NCBI GenBank assembly: GCA_964438425.1
Contig: CAYTKM010000001.1
Span: forward strand, 590,603-654,602
DNA length: 64,000 nt
From: an uncultured Gammaproteobacteria bacterium
Lineage (GTDB): Bacteria > Cyanobacteriota > Vampirovibrionia > LMEP-6097
Direction of reading: 5' to 3'
Each line of letters begins with the position of its first letter. Within the stretch, counting starts at the first letter, position 1. The position numbers and the translations under genes were made by a program. Under the pieces are notes generated by a model that was not told where the DNA came from, ran no database searches, and was given only the letters and a program-made list of their open reading frames with translations. Below are positions 37,309 through 42,714 of the stretch, piece by piece.

Positions 37309-39690
37309 TTAAGGTGTTGCTGCTGGAATCATGCTACTACCCCAGTTGTTTTCTGGAAAGAAGTGGCTCATAGCTTTAGGTGTAGGATCAAGGTTTAAAG
37401 TATCACCAGTCGCTCTTGCTATATCCTCGAACTGTTCGGTTAGACGTGGCATATAAATACTGGCATCTAAACCTAAAGCATCAAACGCAAAAACATGTGC
37501 GTCCCACCATTGTTGGGTGGTAAATAAATCTTCAGCGCCATGTGGAATTAAGATATTCATGAGTTGAGTTTTACTTTGATGGTCGTAAAGAGGTAGATCA
37601 GTTAGTTGGCGGCTTACTGTGCGGTTTTTAGGTACTAAGATCGCAAATAAATCATCTGGATCAGCTATGTTGCCATCAACCCGCGGTGAGCTTAAAAATC
37701 TTTTCTCCAGCATATGATCAGCTTCGAAAAGATAACCCCAGCCGCGCCGATCAGCTATTAGATCTCGGTATGGTTGGATAATACCACTGCCAGCAGCAGG
37801 GCTTTCAAGTAAAGTATGAATAAAGGCTCTAGCTTCATCAGTTACCTGAGGAACTAATTTGTTGCTTAAGCTAGACCTTAGACGTCTACTGAAGTTATCA
37901 CCAAGTAGATCTATCAGTATATCTCGGTATTGACCATTGGTTTGATTCATAGCCCAGCGCACTGCATTTGCACGTCCCCCACTGCTACGGTATTGTCTAA
38001 ATCTTTCAGCTAATTTAGGATGACTAAACCCTTCGAAATTAGCATCAAACACTTTAGCAAGCTCACGCCTCTCGAGCACTTGGGCTAAAGAAGCTGATAA
38101 ACGATCATCAAAAGCAGCAACCAAGTCACCAATGTCTAAATCTACGCTACTGAGTCTAGACCTGACTTCTGCTTGCAGAGTGTCAGAAATTTGCCAGTGA
38201 CTGGGATCTAAGGTGGTGTTAGGAGGCTCTAGACCTAGTAAAGCCTCATCCATAACCTGTCTAAGCTCAGTTGCTGAGCTGATGCCACTTAATTTTGTGG
38301 TCAGAAGATCTGGTGTTACTTCTGTATTAAGTCTTCTGACGATACTTTGAATTTCAGCTAAAATCTGACTAGTACTTAGTTCAATTGCATCAGCGTCTAA
38401 TGCTGAAAGTAGAGTTCTAATACGTCTTTGAATTTCAGGTTCAGCCTCAACTGCTGCTGCGATTACCTCATCATCAAGACTTTCAGTCACTAAAATCTTT
38501 AATTCATTAGTGCCAAGACTATCAGCTACATTATTAAGCCTTCTAAATCTTCTAAAGATAGCTTTAAGCGAATTTAAGACGCCAGCATCTACGCTAATTA
38601 AGGAAGCTAGGCAACCGACATACATTAGTGCAAGCTCAGTTTCACTTACAGGGTCACCAAAGAAATTTTCACCAGTAACTGAAGCGTAAATAGTCTGCAC
38701 GGCACCATAGATATCGCCTACGATAGGTACAATACCTATCATCATTTCAAAAACATTGAATTGCATGCGCACTCTAGCTGATAGTTGCCTGCGGAAATGA
38801 TAACGAGGACTGCTAGCATCTGGTATGCTCATTGCCAGATTTGATAAATCTGCGCCTTGCGCTGGCACTTGGTGTAAATGCCTGACGATATGTTCTTTGT
38901 AAATGACTCTAGCAGCGCCAGCACGATCATCCCAGGAAATATTTAATCTAACTGTAACTGCTCGAGTGCGGCAGACATGAATCTCATAAAATGCTGCCTG
39001 GCTTTGAGGTGGATGTACTAGTTGGTAAGCAAACCCGGCTGCAAAGCTTTCATGAGAACTAAGTTCAAGTGACCATCTTTCATCAATCTGGTTATCGTAA
39101 TTAAAAGTAGTTTTTAAAGGTAAAGTACGTATTTTGACATCATGCCGGCGATTGCTGGCAGAAAAAGTGTTTAAAGATGCAGGGTTTAAAAAGCTAAAAG
39201 TAGTATTTGAGCTCGCAGCGTTAAAATCACTACTCACTGGTATTTGTTCAAGATTATACTGGTCTATGAAGCTAACTTCAGGTTTAATAAGGCGGCTCAA
39301 GTTGATAGCCGAGCCTAGACTCGGAATTAAGCTAAAATCATGCACACGATAAACTTCAATAATAGGTAAGTTTTCACCTCGACTTTGTAGTATTTGCAGT
39401 AATCTATAGGGAATTTCAACTCGAGCATAGCGGCTAATGACGATTCTGATAATCGCAGTGTTAAGACTATTAATACCAGTTGCTGGAGTGAAATTCCAGG
39501 CAAAGTGCACATGTCTGCGCCAGCTCCGAGAGTATATTTTAATCTCGAATAGATTTAGCCTGAAGTTCTGGTGCGCGCGCGTGTAATACCGAAGACGCGC
39601 GCGCGGCTCATCGCGGCTCAAGTCCGCCAGTGGGCGGACTTGAGCCTTAAGCTTGGTAGTACTGCTGTCAAGTAGAAACTCGAATGTCAC
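37309..39690 (-). CDS. Putative polymorphic toxin: pre-toxin TG-like region plus C-terminal HNH/His-Me-type nuclease
   Basis: MIGIVPIVGDIYGAVQTIYASVTGENFFGDPVSETE (PT-TG pattern); C-terminal EADHMLEKRF...DPDDLFAILVP...YDHQSKT...IPHG, like H(H/D)xxEKRF toxin nucleases; GTG start abuts the upstream TAA. Confidence 0.65.
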   Translation of the reverse strand: MTFEFLLDSSTTKLKAQVRPLADLSRDEPRARLRYYTRAHQNFRLNLFEIKIYSRSWRRHVHFAWNFTPATGINSLNTAIIRIVISRYARVEIPYRLLQILQSRGENLPIIEVYRVHDFSLIPSLGSAINLSRLIKPEVSFIDQYNLEQIPVSSDFNAASSNTTFSFLNPASLNTFSASNRRHDVKIRTLPLKTTFNYDNQIDERWSLELSSHESFAAGFAYQLVHPPQSQAAFYEIHVCRTRAVTVRLNISWDDRAGAARVIYKEHIVRHLHQVPAQGADLSNLAMSIPDASSPRYHFRRQLSARVRMQFNVFEMMIGIVPIVGDIYGAVQTIYASVTGENFFGDPVSETELALMYVGCLASLISVDAGVLNSLKAIFRRFRRLNNVADSLGTNELKILVTESLDDEVIAAAVEAEPEIQRRIRTLLSALDADAIELSTSQILAEIQSIVRRLNTEVTPDLLTTKLSGISSATELRQVMDEALLGLEPPNTTLDPSHWQISDTLQAEVRSRLSSVDLDIGDLVAAFDDRLSASLAQVLERRELAKVFDANFEGFSHPKLAERFRQYRSSGGRANAVRWAMNQTNGQYRDILIDLLGDNFSRRLRSSLSNKLVPQVTDEARAFIHTLLESPAAGSGIIQPYRDLIADRRGWGYLFEADHMLEKRFLSSPRVDGNIADPDDLFAILVPKNRTVSRQLTDLPLYDHQSKTQLMNILIPHGAEDLFTTQQWWDAHVFAFDALGLDASIYMPRLTEQFEDIARATGDTLNLDPTPKAMSHFFPENNWGSSMIPAATP

Positions 39691-42600: not shown

Positions 42601-42714
42601 TGTAACTAAACGCCTAAGGTTAGTGTTATCGTCTTGAATGTCGATTTTACCTACCTGATCTGAAACTTTTTTATCTACTGGTCTTACCACTACGAAGTTG
42701 AATAACTCTTGCAT
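39691..42714 (-). CDS. Large conserved-type hypothetical protein; candidate beta-pore-forming/translocase component
   Basis: 1007 aa; LLVVKQQILRYEKFEVAHVENIMAGEER, S/T/E-rich strands flanking an amphipathic hairpin GALSVTAKYGPWLEVTASGEVAYT, FLEQAFEWENMNFLFYPYFWGRK, GEPWEVVVPTNLV. Confidence 0.6.
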   Translation of the reverse strand: MQELFNFVVVRPVDKKVSDQVGKIDIQDDNTNLRRLVTDARSEFKKLKFKIRLKETNDKLRPDFKWSIGGFEGDKKLDSNRTRNKEARSKQSEYLDQLDLNELEQIISSAEWSADKKILDSIILVGKLKDSTARQTLAEASALRQSMHALELLAKKSIDKDVLSFQKALNAPLKISEKRLPRLNLRPDNRLSNQNQALKKKLNQSLKQKTDQYQNFAKLVSKFTNLNQKDFAPATNKFTYQNLASKYSHNLNTNLTHNNLDLVRGTRKINTNVTAYQQVNTAHIKSSPKGDFSKSLNLTKNAHRKFDVQDLKTLKNFDLSLTDDVTQIVSTLKTHKKQLASELDAEIPAEYKTKSFTMLNAAILPVGSSTMGLDSLLAENIRDILGYKPLGDLFLPLFPSAPVTAGPSLLQPAGVAQLLVVKQQILRYEKFEVAHVENIMAGEERAREHKRRSVYETNILTDIETETFEEKDLQSTEKFEMSTETKEVAKEEMKAKGALSVTAKYGPWLEVTASGEVAYTDANERTTEAAMNFSREVTQKAISRIKEKVRKRKEVKTIDETEEFNSHKFSNTDSEHIVGIYQWLNKVYQAQVFDRGLRTMYDFIVPEPAAFYIKAFQEQSKGSLMDIIKPDALYFEAKNLTEDNYLYYAAKYGAAEVTPPPDEFVTVAVTLNMPYRENWRDVSDVKSDEIRIPKNYQAYKAFTNLLAPGNEDTQLACNVGTHFKMIGNTADYWEVDMISEIGTIPVTLTAIAAAAPSASTEILCKRTARAYEEWQIQTFDQIRIAYENKLSEYNKAIQAVTISSQSQIKGNNPEANKKLIASELKRAAISIIANERMNLDLINEDVDGVPYVDLNSRRQKESLIRFLEQAFEWENMNFLFYPYFWGRKEPDMWAKKILFDDHDANFTDFIKAGAARMQLPVRPGFTEMVDHYCKTGEVWSGGELPAISDDTYLDFVTERVAQLGYQEETPVGEPWEVVVPTNLVSLNKAGLELPSWSQAEDGSWIEG

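Follow-up and report, generated by a model that had tools for sequence, protein, structure and literature searches.

A large unnamed protein family encoded ahead of exchangeable enzymatic partners: a candidate carrier and toxin cassette

Polymorphic toxins combine a conserved component with interchangeable enzymes (nuclease-like, lipase, peptidase), include the pre-toxin domain PT-TG (PF14449) and are marked by rampant horizontal transfer, cassette swapping and the presence of several different-toxin cassettes per genome (Zhang, de Souza, Anantharaman, Iyer & Aravind 2012, PMC3482391), all of which are traits shared by the family to which the locus analysed here belongs, ten of the family-wide partners exceeding the Pfam threshold for PT-TG. 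A 2025 survey reported that many PT-TG proteins of both monoderms and diderms are devoid of a trafficking domain, only the T7SS-linked ones being explained (bioRxiv 10.1101/2025.10.01.679605). A second point of reference are the lodAB/goxAB operons, whose gene order, LodA-like and then LodB-like (a flavoprotein), recurs in 10 of the 80 loci that we compared; the published survey of these operons does not mention a gene for a protein of ~1000 aa upstream of them (Campillo-Brocal et al. 2015, PMC4417212).

The locus belongs to a 64,000-nucleotide stretch of DNA, hereafter the window, and encodes P0001, which we call the carrier, and its partner P0002. Together they probably represent an undescribed route for holding and deploying toxins. 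We regard it as plausible, the balance standing about level, that the two genes form a horizontally mobile unit complete in itself, whose non-enzymatic carrier cages, and later deploys, a coupled and exchangeable enzymatic toxin.

The gene pair in its genomic setting

Both genes are found on the minus strand (Table 1) and form the coupled pair that the initial annotation had described, the TAA of the 1007-aa gene abutting the GTG of the 793-aa gene. The P0001 frame closes with GGT TAA and the very next codon, the GTG, opens P0002 with the frame unchanged, 4 nt downstream of a Shine-Dalgarno-like GAAGG; P0002 is likely to be translationally coupled to P0001. The public gene call sets the start of P0002 60 codons downstream of this GTG, yielding 733 aa. 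Given that residues 1-60 align with homologues (R-P-x-A-D-L..D-E-P-R) and form beta strands in the AF2 model of this domain at the N-terminus, the abutting GTG is the likelier start.

The GC content is 0.415-0.43 at the gene pair as against 0.33-0.36 in the flanks, which within the window hold mfd and genes for acidic repeat proteins. This contrast and the absence of the pair from the 60 relatives in which it was sought are signs of foreign origin. The rnj-mfd arrangement is conserved in relatives; since synteny stops at mfd, no clean insertion site can be demonstrated. A 79-aa ORF begins 38 nt past the P0002 stop. Its N-terminal hydrophobic stretch and charged tail make it, by shape only, a candidate that may be immunity-like or holin-like; no Shine-Dalgarno sequence was seen ahead of it and no counterpart was found behind other P0002-like genes.

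Table 1. Features of the locus (window coordinates) and classes of genes directly behind (+1) the carrier family
Feature	Position or number of loci	Strand	Basis
P0001 gene (1007 aa, carrier)	39691..42714	-	ORF
P0002 gene (793 aa, partner and toxin candidate)	37309..39690	-	ORF
Gene junction: GAAGG 39699-39695, stop TAA 39693-39691, start GTG 39690-39688	39688..39699	-	direct sequence reading
Amphipathic beta-hairpin of P0001, ~residues 497-520	41155..41226	-	family-wide hydrophobic/polar alternation
PT-TG-like segment of P0002, residues ~307-372	38575..38772	-	hhalign, hydropathy
C-terminal domain of P0002, ~638-780, putative catalytic toxin domain	37351..37779	-	invariant columns, 13 sequences
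79-aa ORF, candidate small membrane protein; may be no gene	37031..37270	-	ORF list
+1 partner LodA_N/C	10 loci		Pfam tally over 80 loci
+1 partner PT-TG	10 loci		Pfam tally over 80 loci
+1 partner PAD (arginine deiminase type)	4 loci		Pfam tally over 80 loci
+1 partner Peptidase_M23	4 loci		Pfam tally over 80 loci
+1 partner Patatin	3 loci		Pfam tally over 80 loci
+1 partner PLD	1 locus		Pfam tally over 80 loci

The carrier and its partner protein

P0001 consists of a helical, fast-drifting N-region (residues 1-~400), of which the extreme N-terminus is kept (MQELFNFVVVRP), and a conserved core (residues ~405-1006), the family alignment spanning residues 400-1006. It matched nothing in Pfam (even at E<=10), NCBIfam, PADLOC or the PDB, and sequence and profile searches of the PDB assigned it to no family. 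Its AF2 model, of moderate confidence (pLDDT 69.7, pTM 0.52), retrieved nothing from the PDB with Foldseek at E<=1e-3, the best matches being generic jelly-roll/CBM domains with a query TM-score of ~0.08, and nothing convincing from the BFVD viral library. Aerolysin, ETX, PA and MACPF were absent among the Foldseek matches, Cry pore domains showed no similarity by Foldseek or profile, and the Pfam domains Binary_toxB, PA14 and aerolysin were absent from P0001 and 50 family members; nor did Pfam reveal an NTPase or known sensor domain in P0001 or its family. Because the fold resembles nothing solved, a translocator role for the carrier is unsupported, and the initial view of this protein as a pore or translocase is left with an amphipathic beta-hairpin as the single feature in its favour.

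This hairpin (G-A-L-S-V-T-A-K-Y-G-P-W-L-E-V-T-A-S-G-E-V-A-Y) comprises two strands, ~9 and ~11 residues long, that meet at a G-P turn, its columns alternating across the family between hydrophobic fractions of ~0.9 and ~0.1. It is flanked by two charged helices and the modelled flanking strands extend over 28-30 residues, the AF2 confidence at the hairpin itself being very low (pLDDT 26-34). Such hydrophobic/polar alternation is not specific to pore formers, and the hairpin is at most a putative membrane-insertion element. Conserved alternation, with long beta strands and charged helices alongside, would suit a binary AB toxin, whose carrier would oligomerise, turn the hairpin into a beta-barrel and translocate the enzyme into target cells, perhaps those of eukaryotes; also consistent with it are a jelly-roll domain as potential receptor-binding part, the absent immunity gene and the coupled, separate enzymatic subunit. 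Nonetheless, the missing similarity to any of the pore-forming folds and Pfam domains listed above, the lack of a secretion signal, the shortness of the hairpin strands, whose alternation is common in soluble sheets, and the occurrence of M23 peptidase partners, which target bacterial walls rather than eukaryotes, render this explanation improbable.

P0002 begins with a beta-rich N-domain (residues 1-~300) and a hydrophobic helical hairpin resembling PT-TG (~305-372), continues with a helical part (~373-630) and closes with an alpha/beta C-terminal domain that is conserved (~638-780), as delimited from the AF2 model and homologues. In the Kyte-Doolittle scan only its residues 313-331 and 353-372 reached a window mean >=1.6, and no 19-residue window of P0001 did so; neither protein has an N-terminal hydrophobic, Sec-like leader, in agreement with the first description of the pair, which had seen no clear Sec signal in either. 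The PT-TG-like segment carries the motif I-V-P-I-V-G-D-I-Y...V-T-G-E-N-F-F-G and two hydrophobic helices. Compared directly with Pfam, P0002 gave no match, PT-TG included, but hhalign aligned its family (A4) over P0002 residues 307-394 with the PT-TG class (A6), members of which exceed the Pfam PT-TG cut-off (e.g. 25.5 bits vs 23.5), at 95.2% and E 2.9e-8. The PT-TG label proposed at the outset is borne out in part, as a remote similarity.

The C-terminal domain is modelled with pLDDT 75-91 and has D658, H659, E662, R664, K688, Y702, H704, K707, D730 and H732 invariant in 13 sequences. Its first designation as an HNH nuclease could not be upheld: none of the 13 family members matched anything in Pfam at E<=5, HNH included, the PDB profile search returned no relative, and the best Foldseek match had E 0.36, a Cas9 row having E 0.93 and probability 0.02. 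Among the residues expected of an HNH set D658-H659 and H704 are invariant, but the position of the would-be Asn, N689, holds D or H in 4 of 13. The domain, with its conserved His/Asp/Glu/Lys set, is probably hydrolytic and may be a nuclease, and P0002 is a candidate toxin.

The carrier family, its partners and its neighbourhoods

The carrier family is very widespread and unnamed in Pfam and NCBIfam. Our full HMMER scan retrieved 3574 matching representative clusters at 50% identity from Actinomycetota, Pseudomonadota, Cyanobacteriota, Bacteroidota, Planctomycetota and archaea, the cassette occurring in monoderms, diderms and archaea alike; members bear without exception the public name 'hypothetical protein', and literature searches yielded no published description of the family. 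Word-indexed homology searches with whole proteins found almost nothing, since the words were drawn from low-complexity N-terminal parts, and the HMMER scan and a search with the C-terminal region were needed. Accretion of domains of extracellular type amounted to one discoidin domain, below the Pfam cut-off; a CBM_5_12 match in one member, whose position could not be located, was left unused.

A large same-strand gene stands behind the carrier in 64 of 80 loci, and in 53 an ORF on that strand with 200 aa or more starts within 65 nt of it; 16 loci were without a clear +1 gene in what was a crude ORF calling. Besides the classes of Table 1, several additional partner classes without known identity occupy this place. 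Relatives of P0002 are likewise located behind carrier-family members, directly so in the three of three contexts looked up, and a patatin partner accompanies both the paralogue of P0001 in its own genome, where it starts 2 nt past the paralogue stop, and a metagenome homologue. A variable toxin-domain gene therefore lies consistently behind the carriers, as the initial annotation had anticipated; in place of the swappable nuclease cargo that it envisaged there is a broad spectrum of enzymes, with an oxidase that makes H2O2, a deiminase, lipases and a peptidase of peptidoglycan. From its D...F-E-A-K letters, read by eye in the alignment, the 615-aa PT-TG class putatively resembles PD-(D/E)xK enzymes. 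Two ideas were discarded: hhalign found no docking domain common to the toxin classes, and a toxin-class-specific carrier N-region was rejected, N-regions being homologous across classes.

Conservation of the neighbourhood is restricted to the +1 gene and, where this is of the LodA class, a LodB-like gene at +2. Other neighbours are heterogeneous and mostly metabolic or housekeeping (97 flanking proteins distributed over 64 Pfam families, each met once), and include one integrase and one transposase. Defence-island or mobile-element contexts were not encountered in the flanks, the neighbours of the 80 loci include no secretion genes, and lysis genes are not conserved there either. SOS regulation as in colicins was dismissed, the GAAC-N4-GTTC matches corresponding only to a conserved N-terminal coding motif. 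Behind the PT-TG class (11 loci), the 770-aa class (11 loci) and the P0002-like genes no ORF of 40 aa or more is conserved, and behind the LodA class only the LodB-like gene is; the lack of an immunity gene recorded at first for this locus thus extends to the family. Similarly, the absence of T6SS and T7SS delivery genes near the pair holds genome-wide: VipB/TssC, WXG100, PAAR and phage/CIS sheath markers had no match in the 92.65%-complete genome, nor had ShlB/TpsB, for which the ShlB control matched nowhere either.

These results bear on whether the pair is a conventional polymorphic toxin that relies on an export machine and an immunity gene encoded elsewhere or escaping recognition, the ~1000-aa protein being an outsized chaperone or adaptor comparable to Eag, DUF4123 or Lap. 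PT-TG domains are characteristic of the toxins of T7SS, T6SS and CDI, and adaptor genes usually sit directly upstream of their toxin. Against this, no T6SS, T7SS, PAAR or sheath genes were found in the genome, the monoderms, diderms and archaea that harbour the cassette have no such machine in common, no immunity gene is conserved, and 1000 residues with a 600-aa conserved core far exceed known adaptors, which makes this possibility very remote.

The carrier cassette is horizontally transferred. In the core tree taxonomy is scrambled, P0001 has as its sister (support 100) a carrier from Planctomycetota whose partner is of the same type, and the partner label requires 33 changes, a value between the minimum of 10 and the shuffled mean of 53 that denotes both co-inheritance and partner swapping. 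Patchy distribution by horizontal transfer is also what an intracellular anti-phage system would display, in which the ~1000-aa protein would be a sensor or cage freeing the effector upon infection, leading to abortive infection in the manner of PARIS AriA-AriB, CBASS or Lamassu. As the cell kills itself, an immunity gene would be unnecessary; a large conserved protein with a swappable effector, the absence of immunity genes and signal peptides, the resemblance of the patatin and PLD partners to CBASS phospholipase and DrmC models, and a Bacillus thuringiensis plasmid copy of the carrier lying amid helicase, HTH and DUF genes all accord with it. However, P0001 and its paralogue have no match in PADLOC-DB 2.0 at E<=1, the partners match only generic phospholipase and DrmC (PLD) models there, the carrier has no NTPase or known sensor domain, its neighbourhoods are not defence islands and a search of 50,697 phage records did not retrieve it. 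In addition, LodA-like proteins with their LodB maturase, M23, PAD and PT-TG are hallmarks of secreted antagonism rather than known Abi effectors (PT-TG survey, bioRxiv 10.1101/2025.10.01.679605). We therefore consider an anti-phage role unlikely, though deserving of serious attention.

Proposed explanation and comparison with known systems

In the carrier and toxin cassette that we favour, the carrier would bind the toxin during synthesis and the bound toxin would stay harmless to the producer, so that no immunity gene would be needed; the carrier would then direct the toxin at other cells independently of known secretion systems, with its jelly-roll domain, C-terminal domain and amphipathic hairpin as candidate means. 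Binding, neutralisation, action outside the producer and membrane activity are thus steps that we infer. Enzymes of the M23, LodA-like and PAD types usually act outside the cytoplasm, and PT-TG, present among the cassette partners, is a marker of polymorphic toxins. It is tempting to speculate further that the family forms the core of an unrecognised, machine-free mode of toxin deployment across monoderms, diderms and archaea, in which the carrier, a single large protein, would cage its co-translated toxin in place of an immunity protein, exit the cell, bind the target and carry the enzyme across the target envelope by means of a fold that resembles no solved translocator, a broader proposition that we hold to be rather doubtful.

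Several points count against the favoured explanation: intracellular anti-phage systems, too, typically have nucleases, patatin and PLD as effectors, the toxin classes lack a detectable docking domain in common, signal peptides are absent from both proteins, the carrier fold matches nothing solved, domains of extracellular type on carriers are scarce and weakly supported, and 16 of the 80 loci showed no clear +1 gene.

The several thousand clusters of the carrier family are tied to oxidases that make H2O2, arginine deiminases, peptidases of peptidoglycan, lipases and nuclease-like PT-TG proteins, and for part of the unexplained PT-TG proteins the family offers a concrete partner. The family may also be relevant to the deployment of PAD-type deiminases and of LodA-like oxidases in bacteria. 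Should the carrier take the place of both immunity and secretion, it would embody a new principle of microbial antagonism or defence.

Unlike polymorphic toxins, whose conserved part is the toxin N-terminus, the cassette holds this part as a separate polypeptide linked by gene adjacency, its toxin classes have no trafficking or N-terminal domain in common, no immunity gene follows the toxins, there is no link to known export (T2/T5/T6/T7SS, PVC) and the partners include LodA-like oxidases and PAD deiminases. With binary AB toxins (anthrax PA with LF/EF, C2, iota) and aerolysin/ETX it shares the combination of a conserved non-enzymatic with a separate enzymatic protein, the lack of an immunity gene and, in the carrier, a beta-sandwich domain together with an amphipathic hairpin that is conserved; it departs from them in that the carrier has no sequence, profile or fold similarity to theirs, signal peptides are absent, the enzymes have no common docking domain and the cassette occurs in archaea and free-living soil bacteria. 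Tc (ABC) toxins likewise have a large non-enzymatic delivery part and exchangeable cargo, lack an immunity gene and are released without a classical secretion signal, but TcA, TcB, TcC, VRP1, RHS and SpvB domains are absent from P0001, P0002 and 50 family members, and the cassette has two genes instead of three, its cargo being a whole protein and not a C-terminal hypervariable region. CBASS, Lamassu and PARIS AriA-AriB resemble it in joining one large protein to patatin, PLD or nuclease-family effectors, in lacking an immunity gene and in their patchy, mobile spread, whereas the carrier has neither a PADLOC match nor an NTPase, cyclase or SMC domain, its surroundings are not defence islands, and the cassette partners include enzymes of extracellular type. 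Finally, the cassette differs from lodAB/goxAB operons in that a gene of the ~1000-aa family is placed directly upstream and P0002 itself is not LodA-like.

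Two-gene cassettes with an interchangeable enzyme

Our analysis firmly establishes the locus as one member of a large unnamed cassette family, in which a conserved carrier, here the 1007-aa protein P0001, is joined by an interchangeable enzyme, here the 793-aa toxin candidate P0002 (see table). P0001 has no match in Pfam (up to E<=10), NCBIfam, PADLOC or the PDB sequences; HMMER, run in full against 1.84 billion representatives, retrieved 3574 clusters at E<=1e-3, 1943 of these at E<=1e-30, the matched region being residues ~400-1006 of P0001 in nearly all of them. Family members are recorded publicly as hypothetical proteins, and none of the 50 that were aligned carries a meaningful Pfam domain. 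The alignment revealed the strong motifs G-V-G-D-L-L-V-V-R-Q-Q-L, A-H-I-E-N-V-L, Y-Q-W-V-x-K-V-Y and M-V-P-E-P-A-A-F, as well as F-E-Q-A-F-E-W-E-N...Y-P-Y-F-W-G-R-K; the extreme N-terminus (M-E-x-L-F-R-F-x-x-x-R-P), which might serve in docking or export, is also kept, and the next ~400 residues drift. Contigs from one genome per species hold 554 confirmed family loci, and all locus-context counts rest on the best 80 of these, whose sources include Streptomyces, Kribbella, Micromonospora, Xanthomonas/Lysobacter relatives, Vibrio penaeicida, Planctomycetota, Acidobacteriota, Bacteroidota, Cyanobacteria, Sorangium and a Methanosaeta MAG. The family is found in 14 plasmid records, among them an archaeal Natronorubrum replicon and a Bacillus thuringiensis plasmid, and in no phage record. 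On B. thuringiensis HD-771 plasmid p01 (L089; record 100592-104643) the carrier gene overlaps a 383-aa hypothetical gene by 4 nt, and the pair is surrounded by HTH, DUF6037, DUF6018, DUF6094 and helicase genes. Some carriers have extra extracellular-type C-terminal modules; carrier P0103 scores just under the Pfam cut-off for discoidin (F5/8 type C) at residues 1047-1117, and carrier P0003 has an insert at residues ~835-939 that resembles, by eye, a peptidoglycan-binding repeat.

It had been proposed that homologues of the 1007-aa protein be inspected for a variable toxin-domain protein downstream, and this is what we found: in 64 of the 80 loci an ORF of 200 aa or more, on the same strand, begins near the stop of the family gene (within 65 nt in 53), and these partners form at least 10 unrelated clusters. 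Pfam assigned 65 of the directly downstream partners to LodA_N/LodA_C (10), PT-TG (10), PAD arginine deiminase (4), Peptidase_M23 (4), Patatin (3) and PLD, FAD oxidoreductase and PhoD (one each), or left them without annotation, as with large groups of about 770, 340 and 360 aa. LodA-like quinoprotein oxidase and LodB-like flavoprotein genes directly follow carriers at L056, L057, L062, L063, L065, L067, L071 and L081-L083, an upstream gene of which a 2015 survey of LodA (PMC4417212) makes no mention. Arginine deiminases of PAD type (PF03068), about 930 aa in length, occupy the same position at L022, L035, L041 and L068, which hints that these bacterial enzymes may act as conflict effectors; a paper on cyanobacterial PAD does not mention the carrier partner. 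Likewise, a 2025 preprint (bioRxiv 10.1101/2025.10.01.679605) describes many PT-TG proteins of monoderms and diderms that have no trafficking domains, offers an explanation for the T7SS-linked ones only, and does not mention the carrier family as a partner. The genome of the window itself encodes a paralogue of 1014 aa with 35% core identity to P0001 (G000:C2:212924-217373; locus L004:7924-12374, minus strand), whose stop is followed after 2 nt by a gene for a 467-aa patatin-like phospholipase (Pfam 5.9e-28); a patatin gene also directly follows a metagenome carrier homologue. The phospholipase has a hydrophobic insert, and its cassette adjoins the rplK-rplA genes. When the ORFs up to five genes away from each carrier gene were clustered, the directly downstream position alone proved conserved, save for the LodB-like flavoprotein in second place in the LodA class. 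Among 97 flanking proteins Pfam recognised 64 families, each once, mostly metabolic and with one integrase and one transposase. Therefore, carrier and partner form a self-contained two-gene cassette inserted at unrelated sites.

In the window, the cassette is flanked by housekeeping or unrelated genes, on one side mfd, an RNase J paralogue and an aminotransferase, on the other uvrC and the genes for two very acidic repeat proteins without match in Pfam or NCBIfam. The abutment of the P0001 stop and the P0002 GTG reported in the initial annotation is borne out, the junction reading GAAGG-T-TAA-GTG with 4 nt between the end of GAAGG and the GTG. Stop and start share one frame (39688-39693), which is probably incidental since gaps at other loci occur in all phases; read-through of the TAA would yield a P0001-P0002 fusion. 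The public gene call for P0002 (733 aa) starts 60 codons further in, and the abutting GTG is the likelier start because residues 1-60 are kept among homologues in a 13-sequence alignment and fall within the N-terminal beta domain of the predicted model.

Coordinates of the cassette, its surroundings and the predicted regions of its two proteins
Feature	Position	Strand	Basis or remark
Acidic repeat genes (734 and 760 aa, adjacent)	31862-36660	plus	adjoin cassette, opposite strand
Hairpin ending this gene pair	36717-36743		12-bp stem
79-aa ORF	37031-37270	minus	38 nt past P0002 gene
793-aa ORF (P0002)	37309-39690	minus	zero gap after P0001 ORF
P0002 start GTG	39690-39688	minus
P0001 stop TAA	39693-39691	minus
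1007-aa ORF (P0001)	39691-42714	minus
Conserved N-terminal motif	P0001 1-12; window 42679-42714	minus	family alignment
Helical N-region	P0001, N-terminal part		AF2 model
Four very long strands	P0001 412-439, 443-452, 560-569, 577-606		AF2 model
Charged helical pair between long strands	P0001 477-550		AF2 model, low confidence
Beta-sandwich	P0001 664-766		AF2 model
Long helices	P0001 768-833		AF2 model
Alpha/beta C-terminus	P0001		AF2 model
Beta-rich N-domain	P0002 1-~300		alignment and AF2
Two hydrophobic helices around I-V-P-I-V-G-D-I-Y...T-G-E-N-F-F-G	P0002 305-372		alignment and AF2
Helical region	P0002 to ~630		alignment and AF2
Conserved alpha/beta domain	P0002 638-780		alignment and AF2

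Architecture and origin of the window's partner protein

A search with whole P0002 retrieved only itself; residues 540-793 retrieved ten more proteins with 33-53% identity, and the partners directly behind carriers include one Planctomycetota and one Nonomuraea relative (28-30% identity in the C-terminal half, 23-24% in the N-terminal half). A family member lies directly upstream of the P0002 homologue in all three contexts looked up. One contig (L087), with a 907-aa homologue behind a carrier, has on the opposite strand a second pair of 1067-aa and 375-aa genes (10061-14427, minus), the former without match to the carrier profile. The domains of P0002 were delimited with the 13-sequence alignment and an AF2 model (pLDDT 68.8). 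The PT-TG region ascribed to P0002 in the initial annotation has no direct Pfam match in it or its family members, but their profile remotely matches (95.2%, E 2.9e-8) the PT-TG region of a 615-aa partner class that itself passes Pfam; at this level of sequence comparison the predicted hydrophobic hairpin is PT-TG-like. The C-terminal domain, with D658, H659, E662, R664, K688, Y702, H704, K707, D730 and H732 invariant in the 13 sequences, looks like a putative catalytic domain. Its identification as an HNH nuclease could not be confirmed: no member has a Pfam match, neither PDB profiles nor Foldseek gave one, and the candidate Asn varies among the 13 sequences.

A tree of 83 carrier cores, built by a quick method, showed a scrambled taxonomy, with Vibrio, for example, beside Bacteroidales. 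Partner labels need 33 changes on it, where 10 is the minimum and shuffled labels average 53, which indicates that partners are in part inherited along with their carriers and in part exchanged. P0001, on a long branch, is sister (support 100) to a Planctomycetota carrier with the same partner type. Among 60 relatives searched the family occurs in one genus only (3/3 genomes, one copy each), and in the one of these three examined a 459-aa gene follows the carrier, as in the patatin-linked paralogue. GC content is 0.38-0.43 across the P0002 gene and 0.33-0.36 in flanking genes (window 37000-40000), consistent with a recent foreign origin. No empty insertion site could be demonstrated in relatives. 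We infer that the P0001-P0002 pair was horizontally acquired.

Predicted carrier fold and deployment of the partner

According to the initial annotation, the pair would be a binary toxin with P0001 as pore-forming subunit. The carrier model (AF2 with 50 sequences; pLDDT 69.7, pTM 0.52) has no Foldseek match in the PDB at E<=1e-3 and nothing convincing in a viral library, the best matches being jelly-roll or CBM-like domains that cover only the beta-sandwich. What still speaks for a pore-former is a conserved hairpin inside the low-confidence stretch, whose hydrophobic/polar alternation is kept family-wide and would be compatible with a membrane-inserting element; on balance we regard this model as quite improbable.

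Across the cassette family, no gene for immunity, secretion, lysis or defence is a conserved neighbour. The reported lack of an immunity gene thus extends beyond the window: behind partner genes of the PT-TG or 770-aa class, or those resembling P0002, no ORF of 40 aa or more is conserved. A 79-aa ORF past the P0002 gene begins with a hydrophobic stretch and ends in a charged tail, holin- or immunity-protein-like in shape; it has no visible Shine-Dalgarno and no counterpart at related loci, and may not be a gene. The reported absence of nearby delivery genes agrees with searches of the genome to which the window belongs (92.65% complete), in which TssC, WXG100, PAAR and contractile sheath had no match; in line with the reported lack of clear Sec signals, neither protein shows an N-terminal hydrophobic leader by hydropathy.

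Partners such as M23 peptidases, LodA-like oxidases with LodB and PAD normally act outside the cytoplasm. This, together with the PT-TG marker, the occurrence within a single genome of several cassettes that carry different toxins and the lack of a defence signature, argues for a conflict cassette whose carrier would hold the toxin in a harmless state within the producer and then deploy it against other cells; we give this reading an even chance of being right. The main rival, an abortive-infection pair of sensor and effector, would account equally well for the absent immunity gene and signal peptides; we consider it rather unlikely. No kinship of the cassette could be detected to binary toxins, to Tc toxins or to any defence system so far catalogued. 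Its logic is that of polymorphic toxins, although three traits that define those systems were not found with it: a trafficking domain fused to the toxin, a cognate immunity gene and a recognised route of export.
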